Shown piece by piece: positions 21,964-38,016 of a DNA stretch of 64,000 nt (positions are counted from its first letter, which is position 1; each line of letters starts with the position of its first letter). The position numbers and the translations under genes are program-made. The stretch is from Dehalococcoidia bacterium (lineage in GTDB: Bacteria > Chloroflexota > Dehalococcoidia > Plut-88900), in assembly GCA_965197585.1 (NCBI GenBank), contig OZ240215.1:2592001-2656000 (forward strand), in the 5' to 3' direction. The notes under the pieces are model-generated. The model did not search any database. It was not told where the DNA came from and saw nothing but the letters and a program-made list of their open reading frames with translations.

Positions 21964-22244
21964 CGGGCGTGTCCGCCTACTGCCGATTGCACTCCCTGCG
22001 CCAGCTCCCCCAACTGTGCATTACGTCGGCGGTGTTCCATGTCGGCACGGAGATGCTATAACCCCGAGAAGTAACTCGCAAGTCTAAACCGCACCCTCGC
22101 TTAGCCCTCCGGCAAGGAGGTGTGCCCAGGGCAGTGGAGTCGGGTGTTGCATAGCCATCTAGGGAGACGGTCTCAATGGACACCAACGGTCAGGAAGATG
22201 GAGCGACCACTTGGGCGGTCGCCGACACCAAGAATCTGACGATA

Positions 22245-22560
22245 CAACGGTGAAGATGCCGCCGAGGCCCTCAACGGCGAGTACGTCCTGCGCGTAAGGG
22301 TGAGAGACCCGTCGACCGCATCTGCCACGGTGAATGTGATCGTTACGGTCACCGAGGTGAACGAGGCCCCTCTCTTCAAGGAGGACGCACCGACGGTGCT
22401 GAGAGTCAGGGAGAACACGGACCCGCCAGTCTTCACTCTAGATGACGGCGACACCCTGGTGCGTCCCAAGACCTACGCCGCTACCGACCAGGACGGTGGT
22501 AACACCTGCTGCACGTACTCGGTGACGGGCGTCGACCGCAGTGCTTTCGCCATCGACAGC
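22245..22560 (+). pseudogene. Fragment of a cadherin-repeat gene paralogous to 5103-9440
   Basis: ALNGEYVLRVRVRDPSTASATVNVIVTVTEVNEAP matches about 6150-6430; truncated at both ends. Confidence 0.85.
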
Positions 22561-22874
22561 ACCATCTTTGAGATGTGGATGGGGCTGTCAGCCTGCGGAC
22601 GGATTCCGTTCAATCCGATCTTGGGATGAAAAGCGTATTGAGGAGATTCAGTCCGAAACACTTTGTGGAGCATTTCCCTCCGGGTTCAGGAATTCCGCCC
22701 CTAGCCACCTACAAGGGCGCATTCCACAGATTCCTCCAAAGCTTAGCGATGTTTGTAGTCCTAACTTGACGGCTGCAGTAGTTGAGCATTGGCGGATACG
22801 TCACGCGTTCTCAATAACAAAGAGCGCTTTCGCCGCGAGGCCTGTTGAGTAGTATTTGCTGGCATAGTTCAAGA

Positions 22875-23818
22875 TCAACCATCGTCTTGGAACCGAACCT
22901 CAATCCGTTCATCCGTCACATCTGCTAGCGAGTTCTCCGTCGCCCTACTCATTCCTAGGTCGGCCAGTAAATTATGAAAGAAACGGCCATCAGCGATTTT
23001 GAAATCTGTTCTCCGCTTAGAAAGCCTCACGAGCATACGGGATGTTTCATCAGTCGGCTGGCCCAGAAGTTGCCTTCCCCGAATATAAGCGTGTAGATCG
23101 GACAATTAAAGCGCAGGGTCAAATATTGAGTCTTGGAACTCTATGGTAGCGAATCTCGTCTCACCTGGGTGGAACAGTGGCACCCACGATCTCCCAAAGT
23201 AATCGGCGACATTCGCCTCTAGGGGAGTGTTTCTATCTAGGACCACATGTAAAACAGAGTTCTCGGGTACCAGGTCATGCGCCTCTTCGAGGAAGAGGTT
23301 TAATGCCATCAGATATGGACGGTTGGTTGCTCCTGTAGTCTTGAACTTGCGATGCATAGTCGGTTTAAAGGAGTTTGAATCTTCGTCTCTCTTCAAGGAA
23401 ATGGACGTTTCAATGTAACCACCTGTGAAGTACCTTCTTTACTCCGTTGTCAGGTTGTTGAAAGTTTCCACATGCACGGCGCCTCCAATGGGGAGCAGAG
23501 CACACGATTCCGCAACTCCCACTAGCTCATCTAGGAATTGGAGTTTGCGCCTGTCAGGCCAACCACGGTAGGGATTTGTAGAGCTCTTCTGACGGCTCCG
23601 CTGGGGAAAATCAATAGAATGGAACTCGTCAACGTTGTGACGTTGTTGTGACGTTCCAACACGTCACTCCAGAGCCTGTTGAAAAACTCCCATTGGTTGT
23701 CGGAAGATACGCTCCCCAGAAGCAAGCAGTACTTCGCACCTTCCTGAGTGCCGCTTTCATACCCGTAGGCCCACAGGTGGGCCTCTCCTTTAGAAGGTCT
23801 TTGTAGAGGTGCTAACAC
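22875..23818 (-). pseudogene. Degraded DUF3800-family gene
   Basis: AYGYESG (decayed YxDESG) at the start and FQDS..PAL*LSDLHAY (LQLADxxAY) near the end; split by stops. Confidence 0.65.
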
Positions 23819-24016
23819 TTGTCTAGTTCTTGTCCGATGGTAGGGTATGAGTTAGGAAACTTACGGGACTCTGTTGTTGGGGCATAAAAAGTCGAGCCTA
23901 TCAAAGCCAATCGGATAGTGTTAAGTGGGTCGAACGGAACTGTGTTGCAAACGTTTGAATCTGCGCTGGCCCTTTGAATCTTGGCGGATGGATTGGCGAT
24001 CGTAGTGCGAAGGTAT

Positions 24017-25243
24017 TCAATGCCCTAGCATCCCTGCTGCCACATAATACCCGGTTGCCCCATCAGGGACATGCTCGTAGGTTTGTACTTGGCCTAGAGT
24101 GTTTAGTAGTTGGCCTACTAGCGTTGCCAGACCCACCGGAACTGCCATGAACAGATGGACCTTTCCTCGCACGTGAAACTGTTGTCTGACATTCCGCGCC
24201 GCTTCTACGATCCGGTGCGCCACCTCAACTGCCTCTCCACCAGACTTCAGATCTGCAGTAGTGGAAGGTTCCAAAGGTTTAACGTGAACATAGGCTCGAA
24301 ACCGTGGCAAAGATTGGTAGGAAACACCCACCGCTTGCGATACGTCCGCGTTAACGGAAACAAGTATGGCAAGGTCATCGGCAGCTGCGTCGCCAGCGGT
24401 TATGACTGCATCAAATTTAGAATCCACACGAGAATCCTGCAGTGACCACAGTTGATTGGCCCTGCCTGGAGTGTATTGCTCCCACGAGAGGTCTGACCTT
24501 CTCGGAGCCATGAAGTAGTAACCCAGGGCAATAGCTGCCGGTATTGAAAGCAAGCCACTAGCCTGTACCGTCCTCCCGGGCGCTCTCTGCTGGATCTGCG
24601 CACTTATTTCAGCCAAGGCGGGAAGCAAGTAAGCTCGCCACGTTTCGTCTGTTGCTATCCTATCCTCAAATCTGTGCGTCCAGTCGATTGCCAATGCAGG
24701 GGGGCCATCAGAGGCGAAGCGGCTTCGTGTATTCATTACAAGTTTGAGTGGCTGTCCAACGGGTAGATAATGGTGTAGTGCCTCCAAACGCCTTGCTAAC
24801 GTTCTAATCGCGATAGAGCGGATTTCATGCTCTGCAGCAGGGTCAGATGACACTTTTCGAATGTTCCACCGTCGCAAGTCTGCGATTCCTATGTCCCCTT
24901 GCATCAGGGTTCCTACGCTCTCATAGCTCAGCCCTCCCGCCGCAACGGGCACAACGAAAAACTCGTCACCTCTGTTGTGGCGGTTAAGTATTAACGGAGC
25001 CTCTACCCTTCGAATCATGCTAGATTCAGCAACATCTGGAGTAAGCCACATGACAGCGCTGGCCGTGTTGGAATCGGACAACACAGACCGAATTGCGTCT
25101 TCCGTGGGCTCTTCATCCAGATTTTCGATGTCTTGCCACGTGGGAATCCCAATGTCGTGCTGATAAGCAATCAATGTTTGGGCTTCACTGAGACGGGATC
25201 TGCGGTAGCTCAGAAAAGACCGGCCTGTCGGGTCTGTCATCAC
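24017..25243 (-). CDS. CBASS effector, TIR-SAVED
   Basis: TIR-like SFLSYRR..TWQD..IRRVE; C-terminal SAVED motif VHLFMAVPVGLATLVGQLLN. Confidence 0.9.
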   Translation of the reverse strand: MMTDPTGRSFLSYRRSRLSEAQTLIAYQHDIGIPTWQDIENLDEEPTEDAIRSVLSDSNTASAVMWLTPDVAESSMIRRVEAPLILNRHNRGDEFFVVPVAAGGLSYESVGTLMQGDIGIADLRRWNIRKVSSDPAAEHEIRSIAIRTLARRLEALHHYLPVGQPLKLVMNTRSRFASDGPPALAIDWTHRFEDRIATDETWRAYLLPALAEISAQIQQRAPGRTVQASGLLSIPAAIALGYYFMAPRRSDLSWEQYTPGRANQLWSLQDSRVDSKFDAVITAGDAAADDLAILVSVNADVSQAVGVSYQSLPRFRAYVHVKPLEPSTTADLKSGGEAVEVAHRIVEAARNVRQQFHVRGKVHLFMAVPVGLATLVGQLLNTLGQVQTYEHVPDGATGYYVAAGMLGH

Positions 25244-26175
25244 GTATCGTCCCCGTTCCTGAATGGAGGAGCGGGTGTAAATTCTTTGGCCTGAGCCTTC
25301 ACGCGTTCGAAATCTATTGGAGAACCGGGGAAAGCATCAAGAAGGATGTCCGGCAAGAACCTTGCGGTCAAATCGGAATAGGTGCAACCGTACCCAAGTC
25401 CGTTCGAGTCTCCAAGCAATTGGGCCAACCCCTGGATTTGCCCGTTATCGAACCCCAAACCCGCCAGACTACAACCCAAAATCGTCAACCGTTGTTCCAG
25501 ATTGGGCCTCTTGAAGTGAAATATGTCGGCAGCTCTCCTTACAATCGCGGGGTCAAGTGCCTCTACCCGGTTGGTACACAGCACCACAATCGCCGGGTGA
25601 TTGCCGCCGCCAATGCGATCAATCCCCCTGATCAAAGCATTTACACCGGCACGATCCTCGTGGTGCATTTGACTGAGTTCCCTAGATTGAGCCAATGCGT
25701 CAGCTTCATCAATGAGGAGAACAATTGCACCTTGCGGGCCGGAATCATCAAAGGCAATTTTCCGTGCCGCCTCCTCTATCCGCGAGAAAGCTGTGGTAAT
25801 CAGGCTCGTCATCTGTCCTACCGCACCAGTGCCGCGAGCCCCCAGGCTGAGCCTGTAAAGCGTCGTCGCAATTTTCAGATCGCGCGCAACCTTATCGGGG
25901 AAAGATTCAGCGAGAGAAGTCTTTCCGGTCCCAATGTCGCCGGAGAACAGAAGCAGTGGCATCCTCTCATCGAAAGATCTGGCAAGAGGTACGACGCTCC
26001 CATAATATTGTTTGCTCCAGTTCTCAATCTCTTTCGGCCGCAAGAGGATCCGCGCTTCTTTGGAAATGCGATCCTTCTCCTGGTCGAGTCCAACAAGACG
26101 TGCATACTTGTCTTGAAGCCGAGGGTTCGGGTACTCCTCTACCGCATCGAACAGGTCATCTTCGGTGTAGTTCAT
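25240..26175 (-). CDS. cap6: CBASS TRIP13/Pch2-like AAA+ ATPase
   Basis: GDIGTGKT, LIDEADALAQSR..QMHHEDRAGVN and LDPAIVRR. Confidence 0.92.
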   Translation of the reverse strand: MNYTEDDLFDAVEEYPNPRLQDKYARLVGLDQEKDRISKEARILLRPKEIENWSKQYYGSVVPLARSFDERMPLLLFSGDIGTGKTSLAESFPDKVARDLKIATTLYRLSLGARGTGAVGQMTSLITTAFSRIEEAARKIAFDDSGPQGAIVLLIDEADALAQSRELSQMHHEDRAGVNALIRGIDRIGGGNHPAIVVLCTNRVEALDPAIVRRAADIFHFKRPNLEQRLTILGCSLAGLGFDNGQIQGLAQLLGDSNGLGYGCTYSDLTARFLPDILLDAFPGSPIDFERVKAQAKEFTPAPPFRNGDDT

Positions 26176-26678
26176 CAGGTTAAGTAAACACCTCTTTCAA
26201 GAGCAGTTCCGTTCCTGGAATACGTCTTGTCAAAACTCCAGCCTCCCAGACCAAAGTTCGGCTCGTTACCGTATGTTCTTTGAAAGGGCAATGAGTTACG
26301 GATTTTCTGGCGTTCGCTCTCACTAAGATTAGACCAAGTGTTGCTGTATTCGAGGAACGAGTGCCACGAGGCACCTGAAATATTTGCGCCGGCCGGAACC
26401 CTTCCAGACCGATCGTCCGCTAACGAGATTCCATCGGACCTAACCGTGTATCGGACAACCACTACCCAACCGTCGCCTCTCTTGAATCCGTATTCGACCA
26501 TCTTAAGACACTTGTTCAGCAACAAGAGCACAAGTTCGCCGATGTAGGCCTCGATGTTCCCGTCGGACGGTTTGCCGTAGAACAATTGCATCTGCTTAAG
26601 GTCTGCCGCGACCTTAGAGGCGAGATAGACAGCATGGGTCTTGGTAAATGTATCGGAGGTGGAGTAGCTATAGGTCAT
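26175..26678 (-). CDS. cap7: CBASS bacterial HORMA-domain protein
   Basis: MTYSYSTSDTFT..AVYLASKVAADLKQMQ..YGKP; lies between the CD-NTase and TRIP13. Confidence 0.88.
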   Translation of the reverse strand: MTYSYSTSDTFTKTHAVYLASKVAADLKQMQLFYGKPSDGNIEAYIGELVLLLLNKCLKMVEYGFKRGDGWVVVVRYTVRSDGISLADDRSGRVPAGANISGASWHSFLEYSNTWSNLSESERQKIRNSLPFQRTYGNEPNFGLGGWSFDKTYSRNGTALERGVYLT

Positions 26679-26680
26679 TT

Positions 26681-27646
26681 TTACACCTTGAAAGAGGGAC
26701 CGAGGACCTCTTTCCATAAACTAACAGCGCGCCCTTTCGTATCGGAAAACTGTGCCTCTGTGAGCGCATCCAACGCATCTGCGCAAGCTTCAACAAGAGC
26801 AATCCTGTCGTGGTCAGAGTAATTCTCCGCCACGTTATTGTCAGCGTTAACCGGGTCGAAGATTCTTACGGGACTTGAACCCGATTTTGGCAAACTCGAT
26901 GCCGGGTAGTAGTCAGCAAACGCGATTCTTGTCTTCAATTGGGATTGAACTATCAAGGAGAAGAACTCCTGAAGTATCCGGGAGTAGTCCTTGAAGTCGG
27001 CTCCGTGGTCTAACATGTAAGCGCAAATCAACTCGACCATAAATGATTTGAAGCGAAAGTCAGGGTAGTGTGATTTCCTGAGGCGAACCCACCACTTGAG
27101 GAGCCTAACCACCTGAGAAAAATGTTGCGGCGTCAGCCGCTTCCGTTTCCGGATGAACTCCAAGTGAAGGCGGACGCTGGTTTCCAGCCATGTCCCGGTG
27201 TCTCGGTTCAGGAGATATCCCCGGTCATCGGGGTCGTCCTCGTATAACACTGGAACGACATCTACATCCAGACCACTACCGCGGAAGTTGACAGAGACAC
27301 AATGGGTTCCACGGCTGAACTGCTCAGGGTGCATGTTGGGGTTCGCTTCCCGAAGACGGTCAGCTAACCAGTTGAGGAGTTCCGAATCATCTCCCGGAGC
27401 GTCGGCTTTCCGCAAATATACTGCAACATCCATGTCGTTGATGGTGCTTAGTGCCGTTCCCTTGGCCACACTACCAGAGTGCAGCATTTTGACCAGCGCG
27501 AAGTCGGGGTTGTCCCGGATCTTGGCAGCCAGCCTGTCCCTAAGGTCATTTACTTGCTTTCGGTATCTCCGAACCCTGTCCTGGTGAAGATTTACGACTT
27601 CATTCCCGAATCTTACGATGTCTGAGTGTTGTACGTGAGGTGCCAT
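26681..27646 (-). CDS. cdnC: CBASS cyclic oligonucleotide synthase (CD-NTase, CdnC-like)
   Basis: SGSVAKGTAL...DMDVAVY, DVDVVP, RLLKWW, FKSFMVELI and DPVNADNNV. Confidence 0.92.
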   Translation of the reverse strand: MAPHVQHSDIVRFGNEVVNLHQDRVRRYRKQVNDLRDRLAAKIRDNPDFALVKMLHSGSVAKGTALSTINDMDVAVYLRKADAPGDDSELLNWLADRLREANPNMHPEQFSRGTHCVSVNFRGSGLDVDVVPVLYEDDPDDRGYLLNRDTGTWLETSVRLHLEFIRKRKRLTPQHFSQVVRLLKWWVRLRKSHYPDFRFKSFMVELICAYMLDHGADFKDYSRILQEFFSLIVQSQLKTRIAFADYYPASSLPKSGSSPVRIFDPVNADNNVAENYSDHDRIALVEACADALDALTEAQFSDTKGRAVSLWKEVLGPSFKV

Positions 27647-27822
27647 ACCTTATCCTTATGTTCCATCGCTGGGCCTGGTTAATGTCCTCAATTGGGCCAA
27701 AACCTGCATCCGACCGAGAATGGCATTCCTATGGGAGCGATGGCGCTTGAGGTCCTCTGCATCCTTCCAATCGGCTCCTCTGTCGATTTCCTGGTGCACT
27801 CCGTTTCCAGCCCGGGTGGATT

Positions 27823-27871
27823 GTTGAATATTAAGTCAACATTATATTCGACTTGATAGTTGAAATTCAAC
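27823..27871. promoter_or_regulatory. AT-rich divergent promoter with palindromic operator candidates
   Basis: gttgaatat..atattcgac (27823-27852) and gttgaa-a-ttcaac (27859-27871), between the CD-NTase and the HTH gene. Confidence 0.6.
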
Positions 27872-27904
27872 ACAAGTTTTGAGAAACTAACTACGGAGGT
27901 TCCA

Positions 27905-28279
27905 ATGCCTTTTCCCGACCGGTTGCGCGAATTGCGGAGGGCTGCCCGGCTAAGCCAGCGGGCGCTGGCAGAGCAGGTCGGGGTAGATTTCACCTATTTG
28001 AGCAAGATCGAGAACGGCCGCGTCGAACCACCCAGCGAGGGCGTTCTCCAGAGAATCGCCAAGGAACTGGCTGACAAACTGGGGAAGGACGAGACCGCGT
28101 TGGCCGATGAATTGATCACCCTAGCGGGCAAAATTCCTTCAGACTTGGCGGAAACCTTGTCCCGTAACCCTGAGGTTGTCCGGCTTCTACGGTCCGTCGG
28201 GAGTGATGTACATTCATCAGCCGATTGGCGAAAGCTCTTTTCGGGTCAGTCGCCAGAAGAACAACCGGAGGAAGGATGA
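27905..28279 (+). CDS. XRE HTH repressor (CapH-like)
   Basis: LRELRRAARLSQRALAEQVGVDFTYLSKIENG; divergent from CBASS. Confidence 0.88.
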   Translation: MPFPDRLRELRRAARLSQRALAEQVGVDFTYLSKIENGRVEPPSEGVLQRIAKELADKLGKDETALADELITLAGKIPSDLAETLSRNPEVVRLLRSVGSDVHSSADWRKLFSGQSPEEQPEEG

Positions 28280-28923
28280 CTACAAGGTACTTGCCCGATG
28301 TTCATATAGAGAGGCAGGCAACCCGGTTGTTGAATCGGTATGAGCGTGAGTTCGAGGCTGTAACAGAGCCACCAGTGCCGGTTGAGGACATCGCCGATGG
28401 CCTGCTGGAATTAGGGATCCTATGGGATTCAGTGTACGAGGCGGCCGGCACATCCACGCTGGCCGGCTTTGAACCCCGTGAATACATGATTAAGTTCAAC
28501 GAATCCCGTCGTCAGGTCTTCGAGGAGACCCCGGGCTTATACAACACCGTGTTGGGCCACGAAATCGGTCACTGGGAGTTGCACGTTGACCATAACCTGG
28601 CAGCCCAGCAACAACTGCCAAACCTCGACCACGTTTACGAGTGCCTCTACCAAGATTGCACCTGTGCTCAAGGGCCCAAGGAAACTCAGGCCCATAGATT
28701 CATGGCTTTCCTTCTAATGCCTTCCAGCCTGTTGTGGGAAGCCGTCAGCGATGTCGAACTTACCAGTTGGCCTAACCTGTACAGGTTGCGAGAACTCTTT
28801 CAGGTTACTATTTCGGCTCTAACAATAAGGCTCGAACGGCTAGGGGTCCTTTACGTTGCTACCGACGGGCAGCTTTACCCGTCCTTGCAGGAATACCACG
28901 GCCAGACGCGACTGGCGCTTTAG
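28276..28923 (+). CDS. ImmA/IrrE-family metallopeptidase (CapP-like)
   Basis: HEIGH motif and ETQAHRFMAFLLMP; ATGA-coupled to the HTH gene. Confidence 0.88.
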   Translation: MTTRYLPDVHIERQATRLLNRYEREFEAVTEPPVPVEDIADGLLELGILWDSVYEAAGTSTLAGFEPREYMIKFNESRRQVFEETPGLYNTVLGHEIGHWELHVDHNLAAQQQLPNLDHVYECLYQDCTCAQGPKETQAHRFMAFLLMPSSLLWEAVSDVELTSWPNLYRLRELFQVTISALTIRLERLGVLYVATDGQLYPSLQEYHGQTRLAL

Positions 28924-28976
28924 GGAATCTGGCCCTTCAAATGGTGGTCTTATGACCGCCCCAAAAGAGGCACGTC

Positions 28977-31900
28977 ATGGCAAACCCCTTCTTTGACCAA
29001 CCCATCATCAACTCCCCATACGATCCCCCCTCCCGCCATTGGGAGCTGGACAAGGATGGCCAGCCGACTCAAAAGATAATCGAGAGTCGGCGTGGAGCCG
29101 AGTTCATCACCCCAATTCCGAAGCCCAAACAAAAGGGAAAAAAGAGGCAGCAGCAGCTTGTCTTTGAGGAAGGTCTGGGGCTTTCAACTCAAGAACAGCA
29201 ATATGAAGTCACGGCGGCAGTGACCGAGATTCGCCGACGCGTCGACGAGTGGCGCAAAATACCGGGCCCCAATAACTGGGGAGTCACGACGCACACGGCT
29301 AGATTGCTATTGCACTGGCGGCAACATAAGTTCAGCAACTACCAACCCTTCTTTTGCCAGGTCGAAGCAGCAGAGACCCTGATTTGGCTTACCGAAGTTG
29401 CTCCCAGGATGGGGCCGGAAGTGAAGAGGGTATTGGATCGGCTGGCCAACGTGAATCAGGAGGCCAACCCGGAGTTGTTCCGCATTGCCTTGAAGCTGGC
29501 CACAGGTGCCGGTAAGACCGCAGTGATGGCTATGATCATCGCTTGGCAGACAATCAATGCCGTCCGGCACCCGAACAGCCGACGCTTCACCCGGGGCTTC
29601 TTGGTGGTCACCCCCGGCCTTACCATCAAGGACCGGCTGCGGGTACTCCAGCCCAACGACCCCGACAGCTACTACGCAAGCAGGGAACTGGTACCCGCCG
29701 ACATGCTGGAGGACCTGCAGCGGGCGAGGATAGTCATCACCAATTACCACGCTCTTCGACGGCGTGAACGACTGGAAGTTTCCAGTGGAGGGAGAGCGTT
29801 GCTGCAAGGCCGAGGCGAGCCTTTGGAAACGCTGGAAACCGAAGGACAAATGGTTCAACGGGTAATGCCGGAGCTCATGGGTATGAGAAATCCAATGGTT
29901 CTTAATGACGAAGCACACCATTGTTATCGGCGGAAACCGGGTGAAGGCGACGAAGGTGCTTTGACCGGAGAGGAGCGGCGGGAAGCCGAAAAAAACAACG
30001 AGGAGGCTCGGGTCTGGATATCCGGGCTGGAGATAGTCAAACGAAAGCTGGGTATTCGCCAGGTCGTGGACCTTTCGGCTACGCCCTTCTTCTTGAGCGG
30101 CTCCGGCTACGCCGAGGGGACACTGTTTCCCTGGACCGTAAGCGATTTCTCGCTTATGGACGCGATCGAATGCGGCATCGTCAAGCTGCCCAGGGTGCCG
30201 GTAGCCGACAACATTCCTGGAGAGGAAGTGCCTATTTTCCGCAACCTCTGGGAGCACATTCGACCCAATATGCCCAAAGCGGGAAAACGGAAATCCGTTA
30301 ACCTGGATCCCCTAAGTCTACCTGTCGAGCTGCAAACGGCACTGGAGGCTCTCTATGGACACTACAAGACCACTTTCGCCCTATGGGAAGAAGGCGGCTC
30401 CGAAGTCCCGCCCTGCTTCATTATCGTCTGTAATAACACTGCGACTTCCAAACTGATCTATGACTATATATCCGGCTTTGAGCGTGTCAGTGAAGATGGC
30501 TCTACTACGCTGCAGCCCGGCAAATTGGACCTGTTCCGTAACTTCGACGATTACAGCAATCGCCTTCCGATTCCACACACGTTGTTGATCGACAGCACAC
30601 AGCTAGAGTCCGGCGACAAGCTCAGCGACGAATTCCGCAAGGCTGCGGCGCCGTTAATTGAGAGGTTCCGCCGGGAACGGCAGGAGCGATCCGGCAACAT
30701 CCAAGATGCCGACAACATTACCGAACAGGAACTCCTTCGCGAGGTTATGAACACGGTTGGGAAGAAGGGTCGGCTGGGTGAGTCCATCCGTTGTGTTGTG
30801 TCGGTCTCCATGCTGACTGAGGGCTGGGACGCCAACACCGTCACTCACATCCTGGGAGTTCGAGCCTTTGGCACCCAGCTCTTGTGCGAGCAGGTCATTG
30901 GACGAGCACTTCGGCGCCAGTCATACACATTGAACGAGGACAAACTTTTCGATGTCGAATATGCCGACGTTCTCGGCATTCCTTTCGATTTCACCTCGAG
31001 GCCCGTAGTGGTTGCCCCAGGCAAGCCACGACAAACCGTCCAGGTTAATGCCGTTCGCCCTGAGCGCGACCACCTGGAGATAACCTTCCCCCGAGTCTCA
31101 GGCTACCGTGAAGATCCTCCAAAGGAAGAGCTAATAGCCAACTTCACCAAGGATTCCAAGCTCGAATTGACCCCGCTCCTTGTCGGTCCAACGCAGACCA
31201 GGAACGAAGGGATTATCGGAGAAGGGGTTGACTTAAATTTGGTTCACACTGGTGACCTACGCATATCCAGCCTGGTCTTGCACCTGACCAAGCGGCTATT
31301 GGAAACCAAGTGGAGAGACCCCAACCAGGACCTAAAGTTGCACCTGTTCGGCAAGTTGAGGAACGTGGTTAAACAGTGGCTTGACACTTGCCTAATCTGC
31401 CGAGGCGGTACCTACCCAGCCCAGTTAATGTACCAGTCATTGGCCGACATGGCCTGTAATCGGATAACCGCTGCCATCACCAGCCGACATGGAGAGAGGT
31501 CCATTAAGGCGCTGCTCGATGCCTACAACCCTACCGGCTCGACGAGGCACGTGAATTTTACAACATCCAAAGCCGACCTTTGGCGCACCGACTCCCGGAA
31601 GTGCCATGTCAATTACGCTGTGCTCGACCTAAGTTGGGAGGCGGAATTCTGCCGGGTGGCCGAGTCTCACCCCCGAGTAAAGTCCTACGTCAAGAACCAC
31701 AACCTGGGCCTTGAAGTCCCTTATCTGTATGGCTCAACTCCCCGCACCTATATCCCCGACTTTATCTTGCAGGTGGATGATGGCCGAGAGGAGCCGTTGA
31801 ACCTTATCGTGGAGATCAAGGGATACCGGGGTGAAGACGCAAAGGATAAGAAAAACACGATGGACTCGTACTGGGTGCCCGGTGTTAATGGCCTCGGTGT

Positions 31901-32141
31901 ATATGGCCGCTGGGCCTTCGCCGAATTTACCGCCGTACATGATATTCAGGATAACTTGCGCGAACTGATTGATTCCTGCCGGATCAGAGACGATAAACGC
32001 CCTGACAGCTACAAGAGTTCCGATACGCACAAATACTCCGACGATGATGGGCGACAAACTGTGGCCGCCAGTTGGCTGGCCGACGCAGGAGGGACTGCCC
32101 CGCAAATTGAGGGCATCCCGAGACGCAGAAGCGAGCTGTAA
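28977..32141 (+). CDS. res: Type III restriction endonuclease Res subunit with a C-terminal VapB-like tail
   Basis: LATGAGKT, NDEAHH, LSATP, MLTEGWD, QVIGRALR and nuclease motif YIPDF..VEIKG; extra tail of about 55 aa. Confidence 0.92.
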   Translation: MANPFFDQPIINSPYDPPSRHWELDKDGQPTQKIIESRRGAEFITPIPKPKQKGKKRQQQLVFEEGLGLSTQEQQYEVTAAVTEIRRRVDEWRKIPGPNNWGVTTHTARLLLHWRQHKFSNYQPFFCQVEAAETLIWLTEVAPRMGPEVKRVLDRLANVNQEANPELFRIALKLATGAGKTAVMAMIIAWQTINAVRHPNSRRFTRGFLVVTPGLTIKDRLRVLQPNDPDSYYASRELVPADMLEDLQRARIVITNYHALRRRERLEVSSGGRALLQGRGEPLETLETEGQMVQRVMPELMGMRNPMVLNDEAHHCYRRKPGEGDEGALTGEERREAEKNNEEARVWISGLEIVKRKLGIRQVVDLSATPFFLSGSGYAEGTLFPWTVSDFSLMDAIECGIVKLPRVPVADNIPGEEVPIFRNLWEHIRPNMPKAGKRKSVNLDPLSLPVELQTALEALYGHYKTTFALWEEGGSEVPPCFIIVCNNTATSKLIYDYISGFERVSEDGSTTLQPGKLDLFRNFDDYSNRLPIPHTLLIDSTQLESGDKLSDEFRKAAAPLIERFRRERQERSGNIQDADNITEQELLREVMNTVGKKGRLGESIRCVVSVSMLTEGWDANTVTHILGVRAFGTQLLCEQVIGRALRRQSYTLNEDKLFDVEYADVLGIPFDFTSRPVVVAPGKPRQTVQVNAVRPERDHLEITFPRVSGYREDPPKEELIANFTKDSKLELTPLLVGPTQTRNEGIIGEGVDLNLVHTGDLRISSLVLHLTKRLLETKWRDPNQDLKLHLFGKLRNVVKQWLDTCLICRGGTYPAQLMYQSLADMACNRITAAITSRHGERSIKALLDAYNPTGSTRHVNFTTSKADLWRTDSRKCHVNYAVLDLSWEAEFCRVAESHPRVKSYVKNHNLGLEVPYLYGSTPRTYIPDFILQVDDGREEPLNLIVEIKGYRGEDAKDKKNTMDSYWVPGVNGLGVYGRWAFAEFTAVHDIQDNLRELIDSCRIRDDKRPDSYKSSDTHKYSDDDGRQTVAASWLADAGGTAPQIEGIPRRRSEL

Positions 32142-32143
32142 GT

Positions 32144-32518
32144 TTGAATCTTGTGGATACCTCAGTTTGGGTTGATCATTTGCGTTCCCCGGTGCCGGTG
32201 CTTCAGTCCCAACTGAGGGCCGGCCAAGTGTTGACCCATCCGATGGTCATTGGAGAACTCGCCTGTGGGATGATTAGTCGAAGAGGCGAATTCCTGTCCT
32301 ATTTGACGGCGCTTCCGGGTATTGCTCTCTTGGACAATGAGCGGATTCTTCGGGACATTGAAAAGAATCGGATGATGGGTCGCGGCATCGGTTTTATAGA
32401 TGCCCATCTGCTCTGTTCCGTTATCGCCCGGGGCGGCACAACTCTGTGGACCAGAGATCAACGTCTCAAGCGGATTGCTGAAGAAATGGGAGTCGCATTT
32501 CTTGAGGAAGCCCTGTAG
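32144..32518 (+). CDS. vapC: PIN-domain VapC toxin
   Basis: VDTSVW, VIGELACG, GFIDAHLL and WTRD; the acidic catalytic residues appear intact. TTG start 2 nt after the res stop. Confidence 0.9.
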   Translation: MNLVDTSVWVDHLRSPVPVLQSQLRAGQVLTHPMVIGELACGMISRRGEFLSYLTALPGIALLDNERILRDIEKNRMMGRGIGFIDAHLLCSVIARGGTTLWTRDQRLKRIAEEMGVAFLEEAL

Positions 32519-32527
32519 GAGGAACCC

Positions 32528-35341
32528 ATGCCCCGAGCCAAGCGCACGAAGAAACCCAAGTCTGTGTACAGCCTGCGGCACGAGGGAGAAACTCGCACCA
32601 ACATACCCACCGCCGAGTACCAGTCGCTGGTGCGGGAAGAAGAGAGCAGCCCCCTTAGGGTGGCCTATGACCGTCGCAACCGGGACCTGGACCCGCAGCT
32701 TGTTTGGCGGGGGAAGGACGAGCAGGACCTCGCCGACCTAGTAGTCAATGTACCACCCCTCTACATCCAGGAGAAAGTCCACCCCAAGGCGCTCATCGCC
32801 GACCTGATGCGCCAGTCCAAGAAGAGCCGGGAAGCGGAAGAGCACCAGATAGACATGTTCGCCGATTTCAACGGCTTGCCCGAAGGCGCAGACCGCACCG
32901 AGTTCTACCGTCACGATGCCAACTGGGCCAACCGAATGATCCTGGGAGACAGCCTGCAGGTCATGGCCTCCCTGGCCGAACGAGAAGGGCTGCAGGGCAA
33001 GGTGCAGTGCATCTATATCGACCCGCCCTACGGCATCAAATTCAACTCCAACTTCCAGTGGTCCACCACCAGCCGGGACGTTAAGGACGGCAAGGCTGCC
33101 CACATAACCAGAGAGCCGGAGCAGGTTAAGGCATTCCGCGACACATGGCGAGAAGGCATTCACTCCTACATGACCTACCTGCGGGACCGCCTCACAGTGG
33201 CTCGCGACCTTCTGGCTGAGTCCGGCTCTATCTTTGTTCAAATTGGCGACGAGAATGTCCACAGAGTCCGGACACTAATGGATGAAGTATTTGACGACGA
33301 AAATTTCATAACGCAGATTACATACAAGACAAACTCGCCTTTGGGAGCAGATTTTCTCCCATCAAACAGTGATTATGTGTTGTGGTATGCGCGAAACAAA
33401 GGCAATGCCAAATGGCGGAAGGTCTTGCTCGAAAAAGGCGTAGGAGAAGGCACGCTATTCAACTACGTCGAACTACCTGGGCTACGTCGCAGATATGCAA
33501 CGCCTGAGGAGAAACGAGACCCAGCTACTGCACCGCTAGGATCCCGGTTCTTTTACTACAACGTGTTGATCTCTAGCGGGTATACCCCCTCATGTACATA
33601 TGACTTCATGTTCCAAGGCAAAATCGTTAAGGCCCAAAGAAAATCATGGCGTACAACACAGGATGGAATGGCGCGATTGGACAGAGCCAATCGGCTCACA
33701 ATGCCAGGATCGTTGCCTTACATGGTGGGCTACCACGATGATTTCTCAGTTAAAGCATTGACATCCATATGGGACGATACTCGAAGTGCTATGAACAAAG
33801 TATTCGTGGCACAAACCCAAGAATTAATAATCCAACGCTGCATCCTGATGACTACCGATCCCGGCGATATAGTGCTGGATCCCACCTGCGGTTCGGGTAC
33901 CTCCGCCTACATAGCCGAGCGATGGGGACGGCGGTGGATTGTTGTAGATACTTCACGAGTCGCCCTGGCTCTGGCACGGGCTCGCATCATGGGTGCTCGC
34001 TATCCCTACTACCTGTTGGCCGATAGCCCAGAAGGGCAACAGAAGGAGGCCGAACTCTCGCGCAATGCTCCCTCGACAATGCCGACCTACGGCAATCTAC
34101 GGCAAGGGTTTGTCTATGATCGTGTGCCTCACATCACTCTAGGTGCTATCGCCAACAACGTTGAAATTGATGTCATATACGACGAATTTCAGGAGAAGCT
34201 GGAGCCACTGTGCAAGGAGCTCAACGAGACCCTTAACGCCACTTGGGAAGAATGGGAGATTCCCCGGGAAGCCGTAAGCTCATGGCCTAGGCAAGTGAAA
34301 GACCTCCATAAGCAGTGGTGGGAATTGCGCATCGCTCGACAGAAAGAAATTGACGCATCCATCGCAGCCAAAGCAGAGTACGAGTACCTATACGATAGGC
34401 CCTATGATGCCCGAAGCAAGGTGCGCGTCGCAGGGCCCTTTACTGTGGAAAGCATCTCTCCTCACCGGGTTCTGGGTGTAGACGAGAACGGCGAAATCAT
34501 TGATAGCGTCGCCGAATCACAGGACGGCTACGGCACGGGTTACGACTTCGGCCAAATCATACTCGAAAACCTGAAACGTTCCGGTGTTCAGCAGGCCCAC
34601 AAGGAAGACCGGATAACCTTCACCTCGCTGACTCCATGGCCGGGTAAGCTGGTCTGTGCGGAGGGTCGGTACGTTGAGGGAGGCGAAGACAACGAAGATG
34701 ACTCTGCTTCGGCAGGCATGGAAAAGAAAGCGGGCATATTCATCGGGCCGGAGTTTGGCACCGTGTCTCGGCCTGACCTTGTAGAAGCAGCACGGGAGGC
34801 CGCCGAGTGCGGGTTCGACGTGCTTATCGCCTGTGCCTTCAACTATGACGCCCATACAACGGAGTTCGAGAGCCTGGGCCGAATCCCGGTACTCAAAGCT
34901 CGCATGAATGCCGACCTGCACATGGCCGGGGAGTTGAAGAATACCGGCAACGGGAATCTGTTCGTGATCTTCGGCGAGCCGGATATCGACGTGCTGGATA
35001 CCGAGGACGGTCAACTACAGGTCAGGGTCAACGGTGTGGATGTGTTTCACCCCAACACCGGCGAGGTCCGCAGCGACGGACCGGATGGCATCGCCTGCTG
35101 GTTCATCGACACCGATTACGACCAGGAGAGCTTCTTCGTACGCCACGCCTACTTCCTCGGCGCCAACGACCCTTACAAGTCGCTCAAGACAACCCTGAAA
35201 GCCGAGATTGACCCGGATGCCTGGGCAACCCTCAACAGCGACATCTCCCGGCCATTCCCCAAACCGGAGTCTGGACGCATCGCTGTCAAGGTAATCAACC
35301 ACCTTGGGGATGAGGTGATGAAAGTGTTTCGGGTGGGGTGA
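32528..35341 (+). CDS. mod: Type III R-M Mod subunit, N6-adenine methyltransferase
   Basis: IDPPYG and VLDPTCGSGT (beta-class order); RBS aggagg. Confidence 0.93.
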   Translation: MPRAKRTKKPKSVYSLRHEGETRTNIPTAEYQSLVREEESSPLRVAYDRRNRDLDPQLVWRGKDEQDLADLVVNVPPLYIQEKVHPKALIADLMRQSKKSREAEEHQIDMFADFNGLPEGADRTEFYRHDANWANRMILGDSLQVMASLAEREGLQGKVQCIYIDPPYGIKFNSNFQWSTTSRDVKDGKAAHITREPEQVKAFRDTWREGIHSYMTYLRDRLTVARDLLAESGSIFVQIGDENVHRVRTLMDEVFDDENFITQITYKTNSPLGADFLPSNSDYVLWYARNKGNAKWRKVLLEKGVGEGTLFNYVELPGLRRRYATPEEKRDPATAPLGSRFFYYNVLISSGYTPSCTYDFMFQGKIVKAQRKSWRTTQDGMARLDRANRLTMPGSLPYMVGYHDDFSVKALTSIWDDTRSAMNKVFVAQTQELIIQRCILMTTDPGDIVLDPTCGSGTSAYIAERWGRRWIVVDTSRVALALARARIMGARYPYYLLADSPEGQQKEAELSRNAPSTMPTYGNLRQGFVYDRVPHITLGAIANNVEIDVIYDEFQEKLEPLCKELNETLNATWEEWEIPREAVSSWPRQVKDLHKQWWELRIARQKEIDASIAAKAEYEYLYDRPYDARSKVRVAGPFTVESISPHRVLGVDENGEIIDSVAESQDGYGTGYDFGQIILENLKRSGVQQAHKEDRITFTSLTPWPGKLVCAEGRYVEGGEDNEDDSASAGMEKKAGIFIGPEFGTVSRPDLVEAAREAAECGFDVLIACAFNYDAHTTEFESLGRIPVLKARMNADLHMAGELKNTGNGNLFVIFGEPDIDVLDTEDGQLQVRVNGVDVFHPNTGEVRSDGPDGIACWFIDTDYDQESFFVRHAYFLGANDPYKSLKTTLKAEIDPDAWATLNSDISRPFPKPESGRIAVKVINHLGDEVMKVFRVG

Positions 35342-35463
35342 GGGCAGGAACAGTGCCCCTCTGATATAGCTCCTCGCCCACGCAGCTCTCAGCCCCTTCG
35401 TTCTGTACAACAGCATTCGAGCAGAAAAAAGAATGCGAACTCTGACAACCACCCAAATGACGT

Positions 35464-37533
35464 ATGCAATTTCGCATAGCCGACACTTTCACCTCTAGGC
35501 TCGGCAAGCTACCTAACGAGCACCAGAAGGCGGTCAAAACGACTGCTTTTGACTTGCAGACCAATCCGTCCCACCCAAGCCTTAGTTTGCACCGGCTTTC
35601 TGGCACTCGGGACCCAAACTTTTGGTCCGCCAGGGTGAACAGCGACTTACGCATAATCGTCCATCAGACCTACGACGGCATGACGTTGTGCTATGTAGAC
35701 CATCACGAGGAAGCCTATAGATGGGCCGAGCGGAGGAAACTCGTACCCCACCCCACTACAGGCGCTGCCCAGCTGGTAGAACTCCGGGAAGTTATCCAAG
35801 AGATTCCGGTCTTGTCATATGTAACAGTTGAGCGGTCCACGCCACCAAAGCATCCACTCTTCGAGAACATCCCGGATGAACAACTGTTGGGTTATGGTGT
35901 ACCACCGGAATGGTTGGCTGATGTGAGGATCGCCGACGAAGATAGTGTGTTGGATTTGGCAACTCATTTGCCATCGGAAGCGGGAGAAGCGCTGCTGGAA
36001 TTGGCAGTGGGCAAGACGCCACAACCATCCTTGCCTGCTCCGGACGGGGCCGATCCCTTCGATCACCCGGACGCGCTGCGCCGTTTCCGTGTAATGCGAA
36101 ATATTGAGGAGTTGCAGGAAGCCCTCGAATATCCATGGGAGAAGTGGACCATCTTCCTTCATCCCGCTCAACTGGGTCTCGTGGAGCGGGACTACAACGG
36201 GCCGGCACGGGTCTCGGGTTCGGCGGGCACCGGAAAGACTGTAGTGGCTCTACACAGGGCCGCGTATCTGGCCAAGTCAAACCCAGAGGCTCGCATTCTA
36301 CTGACCACGTTCTCAGGCGCTCTTGCCAACTTATTGAAAACAAAGCTCCACCGACTGATGCACAAGGAACTAGAACCGAACGGCATAACAAAAGTCGGTT
36401 CGCTGGACAGCGTCGGTCTTAGCCTGTACAAGAACTTCTTTGGGCCACCGAACTTGGCAAAGCACGAGACCATACGGAGACTTATCGAAGAATCATGCTC
36501 ACTGGAAGGGACCAAGTTCTCCTTGACCTTCCTCACCGCGGAGTGGGAGCGAGTGATAGACGCTTGGCAGTTGGCTAGTTGGGAAGACTATCGTGACATA
36601 GCCCGTATCGGCCGTTACCGCAGGTTATCCGGGTCCCAGCGGCAGGCATTATGGCCGGTCTTTGAGCGTGTCAGGTCGGGATTGGGAGAGCGCGGATTAG
36701 TGACGATGGCTGAGGTGTTTGGAAGGTTGACTTGCGGATTAAAACAACAGGAACAGCCTATATTCGACCACGTTGTAGTTGACGAAGCACAGGATGTCAG
36801 TGTGGCCCAACTGAAGTTCCTTGCTGTACTAGCAGGAGGACGCCCAAACGGACTCTTTTTTGCTGGTGACCTCGGCCAACGCATTTTTCAACAACCATTC
36901 TCTTGGAAGGAGCTGGGAGTGGATGTGAGGGGCCGTTCCCAGACTCTGCGAATAAACTATCGCACTTCACATCAGATTAGAATGCAGGCCGACCGTCTAT
37001 TAGACCCGGAGATGTCCGACGTTGACGGCAACGTGGAAGACCGGCAAGGAACGGTATCGATTTTCAACGGCCCGAGGCCTTCCATTCAAGCCTTTAATGA
37101 CGAGGAGATGGAGCGCGCGAAGGTAAGCGAGTGGTTGAATGCCAAGGTCTTTGAGCATCTCAGTCCCAGCGAGATTTGCGTGTTCGTGAGGTCTGAGGAC
37201 CAACTGGACAGGGCTGTAGAGGCGATCAAGCGCATAGGTATGATGTATGCCGTACTTGACGATGACATGAAAGTGCGGGATGACTGTTTGACGGTCGGCA
37301 CTATGCACCTTGCCAAGGGCCTAGAATTCCGGGCGGTTGTTGTTATGGCTTGTGATGCTGAGGTAATTCCCCTCCAGTCCCGAGTTGAGTCTATTGCTGA
37401 TGAGGCAGATTTGGAGGAGATCTACAACACCGAACGACACCTGCTATATGTTGCCTGCACACGCGCCAGAGACAACCTTCTGGTGACAGGTGTGAAGCCA
37501 ATATCGGAGTTTCTGGACGACATGAGGATGTAA
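35464..37533 (+). CDS. RelE/ParE-like domain fused to a UvrD-like SF1 helicase
   Basis: N-terminus NPSHPSLSLHRL..FWSARVNSDLRII; GSAGTGKT, VDEAQD, NYRT, AKGLEF and LYVACTRAR. Confidence 0.88.
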   Translation: MQFRIADTFTSRLGKLPNEHQKAVKTTAFDLQTNPSHPSLSLHRLSGTRDPNFWSARVNSDLRIIVHQTYDGMTLCYVDHHEEAYRWAERRKLVPHPTTGAAQLVELREVIQEIPVLSYVTVERSTPPKHPLFENIPDEQLLGYGVPPEWLADVRIADEDSVLDLATHLPSEAGEALLELAVGKTPQPSLPAPDGADPFDHPDALRRFRVMRNIEELQEALEYPWEKWTIFLHPAQLGLVERDYNGPARVSGSAGTGKTVVALHRAAYLAKSNPEARILLTTFSGALANLLKTKLHRLMHKELEPNGITKVGSLDSVGLSLYKNFFGPPNLAKHETIRRLIEESCSLEGTKFSLTFLTAEWERVIDAWQLASWEDYRDIARIGRYRRLSGSQRQALWPVFERVRSGLGERGLVTMAEVFGRLTCGLKQQEQPIFDHVVVDEAQDVSVAQLKFLAVLAGGRPNGLFFAGDLGQRIFQQPFSWKELGVDVRGRSQTLRINYRTSHQIRMQADRLLDPEMSDVDGNVEDRQGTVSIFNGPRPSIQAFNDEEMERAKVSEWLNAKVFEHLSPSEICVFVRSEDQLDRAVEAIKRIGMMYAVLDDDMKVRDDCLTVGTMHLAKGLEFRAVVVMACDAEVIPLQSRVESIADEADLEEIYNTERHLLYVACTRARDNLLVTGVKPISEFLDDMRM

Positions 37534-38016
37534 CTGTGCGAAGGGCCTCCCATCTTGCAGAGGTCAATGAAGAACCCTAGGTTTAAAGCCCTGTGTGTAC
37601 AAGACGCGCAAAAACACTCACACATGGACGAACGAGGAGACCATCGAAACGGCGTCAATGGCCTCCCTGTTGCATTTCAGTCCGACCTTGCAGTCCGACT
37701 TTCAGTCAGGCTACCTTCCCCATCGGCTCAACCTTTCGTTCCTCCTGTACGGCGAGAGCCCACTCGAAGAGAAGGGCAGCTAGTTGTGTCTGGTGCTAGC
37801 CCCTCCTCCCGGTTTGGCGGGAACGTCCACGGCAGACTCATTCCAAGAGAAGAGAGGCTTGGCGGTCTCAACGGTATCTTCGAGGAGTCCGTTGCCCTCA
37901 CAAATGCAAAAACGCCGACAAATACGATGGTTGCGCTGGGCAGGTGGCCGCACCTACTGCGTGCGGCCACCTGCCCACTAACTCCCAACCGGGCCCTGGG
38001 AGGCAAGGTCCGGCCC

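Follow-up and report, generated by a model that had tools for sequence, protein, structure and literature searches.

The restriction subunit (Res) of a type III-like restriction-modification (R-M) system, encoded in a 64,000-nucleotide (nt) stretch of a Dehalococcoidia genome (contig OZ240215.1, positions 2,592,001 to 2,656,000 of the forward strand; hereafter the window), ends in a 25-residue tail that, judged by its sequence, is the toxin-binding end of a VapB antitoxin, and the gene that follows directly encodes a VapC toxin. Our preferred reading, to which we give a probability of roughly 65%, is that Res acts as a tethered antitoxin and that the cell depends on full-length Res, with a main role of the arrangement as a safeguard of res. 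Directly supported are the anatomy of the locus, the homology of the tail, its recurrence and conservation, and the single grouping of the VapC proteins concerned. The individual parts (type III-like R-M, VapC, VapB tail) are ordinary; an antitoxin peptide built into a restriction subunit is new to the searched literature, in which no account of a restriction subunit with a fused antitoxin tail was found, bearing in mind that supplementary tables could list such architectures.

The genes res, vapC and mod lie head to tail on the plus strand of the window, with gaps of 2 nt between res and vapC and of 9 nt between vapC and mod:

28977-32141, +: res, 1054 amino acids (aa)
28977..31967, +: res core, Res residues 1-997, with the NCBIfam NF046055 match over residues 6-997
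31968..32063, +: polar linker, Res residues 998-1029, 32 aa, SCRIRDDKRPDSYKSSDTHKYSDDDGRQTV, past the end of the family profile
32064..32141, +: VapB-type tail, Res residues 1030-1054, 25 aa, AASWLADAGGTAPQIEGIPRRRSEL, plus the TAA stop
32144-32518, +: vapC, 124 aa, TTG start, PIN-domain toxin
32528-35341, +: mod, 937 aa, N6/N4 DNA methyltransferase, type III-like

These coordinates agree with the first-pass annotation, made by a model from the DNA alone, which had described Res followed 2 nt on by VapC and 9 nt further by Mod; the polar linker of about 30 residues that it had noticed past the nuclease domain measures 32 residues (Res 998-1029). The C-terminus of Res reads ...RQTVAASWLADAGGTAPQIEGIPRRRSEL and is followed by TAA. 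Because the TTG start of vapC lies only 2 nt past the res stop, vapC is probably coupled in translation to res. Among the ORFs (open reading frames) of the locus there is no free vapB between res and mod. A scan for promoter-like sites on the plus strand between 28600 and 35700 found none, which is weak evidence for this organism, while terminator-like sites occurred at a frequency no higher than in shuffled sequences, and no RNA runs containing the locus were listed. An assembly artefact at the res-vapC junction is ruled out by Logan contigs from two samples of one study, which cross the junction with 0 differences (31907-32491 and 31710-32240); one of these samples is a possible source of the window.

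Residues 6-997 of Res match the BPTD_3080 restriction endonuclease model NF046055 over profile positions 1-969 of 970 (1320.8 bits; cut-off 800), and since this profile stops at residue 997, residues 998-1054 form an extension of the family core, whose conserved end reads ...GRWAFAEF...ELID. Res also matches Pfam ResIII (E 1.4e-8), and its match to Pfam RE_endonuc reaches 18.2 bits, under the cut-off of that model. The core contains the ATPase motifs of superfamily 2 helicases (GAGKT at residue 177; a DEAH box within LNDEAHH at 309) and the motifs of a PD-(D/E)xK nuclease (IPDF at 926; VEIKG at 945). Mod matches PF01555 (E 5.7e-29) and, over its full length, the PADLOC model MTase_III PDLC03632 (1376.9 bits). 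The features of the R-M family are thus found together, with ATPase and nuclease in Res and the Mod partner in one operon. The gene order at the locus is res, then mod; the classic type III order is mod, then res. In the class to which the window belongs, Res of the BPTD_3080 type was found in 62 of 401 genomes at E <= 1e-50, 50 of them above the model's cut-off.

The identity of the tail was established by comparison with the antitoxins of related toxins. We surveyed 81 loci, of which 80 contain VapC relatives from species-representative genomes and one comes from a class relative, and read in each the frame that ends at the vapC start. For 64 loci this upstream frame is a free VapB of 65-75 aa with the pattern MRTTLNIDD...ERESARRLARLGGSEPxLxxxPRRR, terminating accordingly in ...ESARRLARLGGSEPxLxxxPRRR; four loci could not be classified, two being cut by a contig end (L032, L053) and two having another frame picked (L019, L026). 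Positions 40-63 of 65 in a profile built from the 64 free VapBs align with Res 1030-1053 at 18.9 bits (E 2.2e-4 among 3196 sequences), compared with about 13 bits for the best of 2000 shuffles of the window tail, and none of the 1194 other six-frame fragments of the window reaches 6 bits. When all 14 fused tails (the window and 13 related loci, described below) are scored, seven exceed the best of 2800 shuffles (17.2 bits). Since the score of the window tail against this profile exceeds those of the shuffles and the window fragments, the Res tail is, on sequence evidence, the toxin-binding end of the cognate antitoxin of this VapC family, from which the DNA-binding domain has gone. This bears out the first-pass annotation, which had seen a VapB-like tail without the DNA-binding N-terminus: the three free VapBs scanned match PF09957 VapB_antitoxin (E 1e-18 to 2.8e-11) and the Res tail does not.

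The comparison of the Res end with VapB families by hidden Markov models, which the first-pass annotation had put forward as a check, was positive with the custom profile of free VapBs only; the tail alone gave no match in Pfam, NCBIfam or PADLOC, a silence explained by the fact that PF09957 models just the N-terminal domain of VapB. A word-index search with the terminal 57 aa returned no candidate among proteins of 31-100 aa, for which it is too insensitive with a 25-aa motif, and 13 matches among longer proteins, every one a Res; no other family carrying the tail was seen in this search, which is weak evidence. Nearest by sequence among antitoxins of solved structure, in the N-terminal domain only, are VapB11, VapB15 and VapB26 of Mycobacterium tuberculosis. 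The names VapB32-type and VapC32-type in the first-pass annotation we take to be presumptive. Both the length and the sequence of the linker differ among the 14 fused Res proteins, while the tail that follows it is conserved, with P1042, P1048, R1049 and R1051 invariant.

VapC itself contains a PIN domain (PF01850, E 6.1e-10) and does not reach the thresholds that NCBIfam sets for its VapC models. The acidic residues D5, E38, D86 and D105 show no variation across the 14 Res-linked relatives. At E <= 0.01, neither a matching PDB sequence nor a paralogue in its own genome was found. When the complex of VapC with Res 1000-1054 was predicted from our own alignments of 14 rows each, alongside three controls, it scored a median of 0.85 (0.83-0.87) versus 0.00 for the best of the three controls. 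In calibration, 58 of 80 solved complexes attained 0.85, as did two of 110 mismatched pairs; these counts hold only roughly here because own alignments were used. The runs share at least 84% of contacts, the pLDDT (predicted local distance difference test) of the partner is at least 62, and the confident interface joins Res 1026-1053 to VapC residues including 6-7, 38-39, 81-86 and 105, so that it takes in the acidic active-site positions. The prediction, which had been proposed together with the idea of a fused antitoxin, supports binding of VapC by the tail in a manner that would cover the active site.

The search for another antitoxin covered the genome, which is one contig and about 92% complete. 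No second copy of the tail was found, and the only two VapB genes of the PF09957 type adjoin other PIN genes and have C-termini unrelated to the tail, so the candidate of a cognate free VapB elsewhere was set aside. The absence of a separate vapB reported in the first-pass annotation thus extends from the locus to this genome at its present completeness, and the sequence data support the view that Res carries the only cognate antitoxin element found. Among 60 relatives, G043 is the only genome with a relative of this VapC, and it has a free VapB.

The arrangement is not confined to one genome. At 13 of the 81 loci (L004, L005, L010, L016, L018, L035, L039, L040, L045, L050, L075, L081, L082), the order is a Res frame of the same family (1040-1188 aa) ending in the tail, then vapC, then mod, with a 2-nt gap or a 4-nt overlap between res and vapC. 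Both res and mod are present in all 13, the mod of L018 being split into two frames, and vapC lies between them as it does in the window. The taxa belong to the Chloroflexota (Dehalococcoidia, Caldilineaceae), the Acidobacteriota (Bryobacterales) and the Gemmatimonadota (Longimicrobiales, Palauibacter). In a maximum-likelihood tree of 82 VapCs, the 14 Res-linked proteins, window included, lie on one side of a branch with support 100/97; this grouping is a bipartition, and its status as a clade depends on the root. The Res-linked label requires one change on this tree, a value as low being reached in 0 of 500 shuffles, and within the group the identity to the window VapC drops to 48%. In a protein collection, the strict motif pattern stands at the C-terminus of 35 of the 120 closest Res homologues. 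The first-pass annotation had called for a survey of independent loci with this gene order and had named a deletion accident in a single genome as the finding that would speak against it; the survey returned the 13 loci in three phyla, and these, with the one supported VapC group, rule such an accident out. Two further searches added no cases: among 80 metagenomic loci scanned with the Res core (residues 860-1000) there was no VapC match and no VapB-type tail, and 20 further loci of the class contained no additional Res with a tail, many of them having distant types of Res and no mod next to it.

On the tree of the Res core, the distribution of the tail differs from that on the VapC tree. In a FastTree phylogeny of 144 sequences with tails removed, the 52 Res proteins with a VapB-type tail are scattered, requiring at least 22 changes (shuffled mean 42.7, minimum 32). 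Because at least 22 changes on the Res tree stand against one for the linked VapCs, the tail and vapC appear from these sequences to travel together, as one unit that Res lineages acquire, lose or trade among themselves. As we infer it, such exchange probably proceeds by recombination at two conserved stretches, the end of the res core and the start of mod. Natural contrasts are consistent with such traffic at the locus. In the genus of the window, G008 has a tail-less res directly before mod, with 76% DNA identity until the end of the core, and G004 has kept the tail and has a deletion of about 330 nt that leaves only the last 16 codons of vapC; its res contains a nonsense change, TGG to TGA, at W101. 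The gammaproteobacterial locus L014 combines a tail-less, frameshifted res with a free vapB, vapC and a truncated mod, and looks like the unfused precursor, with a self-sufficient toxin-antitoxin (TA) pair and decayed R-M genes.

VapB is not the only antitoxin joined to this Res family. Thirty loci of the class, taken from the search of 401 genomes for Res, were examined for tail and cargo. At five of them (L170, L173, L174, L180, L188) the tail of Res is of another kind, ...F[KT]ELLAAAPLEGIDLxRxRDFPRDxEF, and the gene after res encodes a second PIN protein (PF01850, E 2.4e-14). The free relatives of this second PIN protein are preceded by Phd/YefM-like antitoxins whose C-termini share the motif of the second-type tail, and against a profile of 11 such antitoxins four of the five Res tails outscore every one of the 2000 shuffles. 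At L176 and L177 a whole MNT nucleotidyltransferase domain is fused in frame to Res (PF01909, E 5.9e-13) and followed by HepT (PF01934, E 6.3e-24), while L167, L168, L171 and L181 have the MNT and HepT pair unfused. Since a VapB tail, a Phd-type tail and an MNT domain are each found on Res, fusion of an antitoxin to Res has, as read from these sequences, occurred with at least three unrelated antitoxin types. Some Res homologues (P0011-P0013, P0040) have two or three tail modules in tandem. That a single Res family has taken up three unrelated antitoxin types, and that the fusion persists across phyla, argues for selection on it. We tentatively extend this, at somewhat less than even odds, to the idea that Res is a carrier of exchangeable antitoxin tails, in which the 3' end of res and the toxin gene form a plug-in cassette that would be swapped by recombination between WAFAEF and the start of mod, and which would constitute a distinct class of TA system: the antitoxin would be nothing more than an attachment of a defence enzyme, policing the reading frame of res or signalling that Res has been destroyed, and restriction would in this way be coupled to a second line of defence based on an RNase.

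Several further observations concern the C-termini of Res and the gap between res and mod. Homologues listed with odd tails include P0018, P0020, P0030, P0031, P0035, P0036, P0040 and P0046; in some of the listed proteins the VapB-like motif is degenerate and a conserved stretch of about 90 aa comes after it (...EEYADHLAEQHRRQ...LSQRERYLLFLEHESH...), and others, in a list that includes P0011-P0013, have Phd-type and VapB-type tails in tandem. At L142 (3275-4140), a free antitoxin-like protein of 158 aa lies between res and mod, ahead of a PIN gene; it contains the internal motif AGTEPDAKNIPRRR and then a second tail, and looks like a two-tailed composite antitoxin. Another C-terminal extension of Res, about 130 aa without a Pfam match, occurs at L088 (4730-5874), L117 and L118; the next gene, which overlaps it by 4 nt, encodes 204-218 aa, also without a Pfam match, and the two together may be a Res-tethered pair. 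The res-mod gap is altogether a hotspot for cargo (L084-L163, L164-L193), with insertions of DUF262/GmrSD-like genes, MNT and HepT, PIN pairs, RelE-like genes with a helix-turn-helix (HTH) gene, DUF4062/TIR-like genes and RhuM-like genes.

The fused arrangement could have arisen, and could work, as follows. A vapBC cassette of the PF09957/PF01850 type would have sat in the res-mod gap of a BPTD_3080-type operon, where an in-frame fusion dropped the ribbon-helix-helix domain of VapB and joined its C-terminal tail to Res via a flexible linker. The tail would wrap the PIN domain of VapC, and its P-R-R-R end, placed at the acidic active site, would keep the RNase inactive. VapC would then stay silent only while full-length Res is made, because its sole cognate antitoxin is the last 25 of the 1054 residues. 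VapC would be freed, and growth would stop, after a nonsense, frameshift or insertion mutation at any point in res, and likewise after deletion of the locus, arrest of Res synthesis or clipping of the tail. As a possible second effect, the same pair could provide a back-up abortive response if Res is destroyed or no longer made. Of these two roles, which are compatible with each other, we slightly favour the safeguard over the phage-triggered back-up, because the extreme C-terminal position of the tail suits a check on the integrity of the frame, because the variable linker hints at no allosteric coupling and because the natural contrasts G004 and L014 fit it; the comparative evidence from these two loci fits dependence on an intact res at least as well as phage-triggered release.

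The window locus stands within a segment of about 16 kb (22000-38000) that has a G+C content of 0.51-0.56, compared with 0.60-0.69 in the flanks, and contains defence genes; it is probably a defence island gained by horizontal transfer. The window has no tRNA gene. The neighbouring genes include:

within 26681-28923, -: SMODS oligonucleotide cyclase of the cyclic-oligonucleotide-based antiphage signalling (CBASS) type, upstream of res (PADLOC Cyclase E 7.4e-123)
27860-28279: CapH-like HTH regulator, upstream of res
28225-28923: CapP-like M78 peptidase, upstream of res
35464-37533: UvrD-like helicase, 689 aa, downstream of mod, GajB-like in PADLOC

The helicase's N-terminal stretch, about 230 aa, has no Pfam match. 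A homologue starting MQFRIADTFT... also follows mod in L004, L005, L086 and G008, so this R-M family may have the helicase as its third partner.

The closest competitor to the safeguard is a guard of the kind proposed in the first-pass annotation, in which the Res tail masks VapC and the RNase is freed, aborting the infection, when a phage blocks, breaks down or shuts off Res. Such a guard is compatible with the safeguard, and it shares the same evidence for binding of the tail, namely the profile and the predicted complex. It is further favoured by the position of the toxin gene inside an R-M operon and within a 16-kb low-G+C defence island with CBASS genes, by the many defence-type cargo genes in the res-mod gap of the family, and by the precedent of PrrC, described in the available parts of the sources as held inactive by EcoprrI and freed by T4 Stp (PMC12707154, PMC3710099). 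However, the tail sits on a long variable linker, and there is no sign that an anti-restriction protein binding Res would shift it; as the main explanation we regard the guard as possible and rather unlikely. A different use of the predicted physical linkage would be that Res recruits VapC by the tail as an accessory nuclease that becomes active when Res engages foreign DNA, much as HEPN and other R-M-associated RNases have been proposed, in the part of the source consulted, to act jointly with R-M (PMC3710099). This we consider improbable: the predicted interface covers active-site residues of VapC, so that bound VapC should be inhibited, and the free homologues are ordinary VapBC pairs.

The remaining alternatives deny the tail its function as a part of Res. 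It could be a neutral relic, left when a chance deletion fused a vapB remnant to res, with a functionless tail and a VapC that is inactive or otherwise silenced. TA cassettes do land in the res-mod gap and deletions do happen there (G004, L014), and the profile score of the tail is modest; yet the arrangement has been kept in 14 genomes of three phyla while VapC identity has fallen to 48%, neither the catalytic residues nor the tail motif vary, the linker diverges where the tail is conserved, and two further antitoxin types occur on the same Res family, all of which makes a relic very improbable. Hardly any weight at all is left for the notion that Res lends only its frame and that the tail acts as a separate peptide, made by clipping or by internal initiation at the GTG of V1029. 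This in-frame GTG does lie just ahead of AASWLADAGG, but the V1029 codon is not kept across the other fused tails, the scan described above found no promoter-like site on the plus strand (weak evidence in this organism), and a product of 26 aa without an upstream ribosome-binding signal is unlikely.

Several points weigh against Res as a tethered antitoxin with a safeguard role. Binding is predicted only, and toxicity, neutralisation and biological role are inferred from it and from the comparisons; because VapBC complexes have already been solved, the prediction may pass by likeness to them, a caveat to be set against the fact that the window VapC has no PDB relative by sequence. The profile score of the window tail is modest, one shuffle of another tail having hit 17.2 bits, and the seven Gemmatimonadota tails are divergent, reaching no more than -1.6 to 12.8 bits. 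There may also be an antitoxin acting in trans, or cross-talk with other PIN systems, since the genome is about 92% complete and 24 of its 25 PIN matches are other than the window VapC. As to the role, the present data fit the safeguard and phage-triggered release alike. G004 and L014 are single cases, the TGA of G004 might be a sequencing error, and either change in G004, the loss of vapC or the stop in res, may have come first. Internal stops in res are found at none of the eight class loci with a fused antitoxin and toxin (a count that includes L174, whose second-type PIN gene is cut short) versus five of the 22 other class loci, which is no significant difference. Four of these five interrupted res genes (L165, L172, L182, L186) stop at TAG.

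R-M systems often decay to orphan methyltransferases through loss of the restriction gene. If the tethered-antitoxin reading is true, any mutation that truncates res would unmask the toxin, because the antitoxin sits at the very end of the frame. Two open questions would be addressed in this way, namely how a costly restriction gene is kept up and how second-line abortive systems sense the failure of the first line. The locus would then resemble the CreTA safeguard of CRISPR-Cas in a simple form at the level of proteins, and would repeat the masking of PrrC by EcoprrI with a covalent link. In practical terms, annotation pipelines will label vapC genes of this kind orphan toxins and overlook the antitoxin, and the 25-aa tail, to judge from the predicted complex, may serve as a portable VapC-inhibiting tag.

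Known systems share parts of this arrangement with the window locus. Like type II VapBC modules, it has a PIN toxin with four acidic residues and an antitoxin tail directly upstream, with a motif common to the window tail and the 64 free VapBs. It is not a canonical VapBC, because there is no separate antitoxin gene, only the last 25 codons of res being VapB-like, and because the antitoxin of the locus lacks a DNA-binding domain, which leaves no autoregulation by the pair. PrrC, as far as the consulted parts of the sources describe it, is an anticodon nuclease whose gene lies within EcoprrI, a type Ic R-M locus; this ABC-ATPase-HEPN protein is masked by the type I enzyme through non-covalent contact, and the T4 peptide Stp sets it free (PMC12707154, PMC3710099). 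Both loci have the gene of an RNase toxin within an R-M operon, thought to be silenced by contact with the restriction enzyme. In contrast, the toxin of the window is a PIN protein of 124 aa without ABC-ATPase or HEPN domains and no homologue of PrrC, and its predicted mask is an antitoxin peptide that is covalently part of a type III-like Res. The CreTA toxin-antitoxin RNA pairs, in the portion of the source available here, addict cells to CRISPR-Cas effectors (PMC9458426); there too the toxin is silent only with an intact defence effector, and loss of the defence gene is punished. The means differ, CreTA being RNA-based and acting by transcriptional repression via Cascade, whereas the block in the window would be between proteins and exerted by a fused tail. 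Toxins and defence genes embedded in R-M or other defence operons have already been described (PMC3710099; bioRxiv 10.1101/2024.01.29.577857), and the res-mod gap of the present family likewise holds free MNT and HepT genes, PIN pairs and DUF262-like cargo, comparable to HepT-MntA and to embedded TA and abortive infection genes. The systems described in the consulted parts of these two sources are, however, self-contained, and none of them uses a host-system subunit as antitoxin (PMC3710099; bioRxiv 10.1101/2024.01.29.577857). Single-gene modules, finally, in which an antitoxin is joined to its own toxin, as given in the part of the source at hand (PMC11980606), have in common with Res that the antitoxin element is joined to another polypeptide; in the window this polypeptide is an unrelated defence enzyme, and the toxin stays separate.

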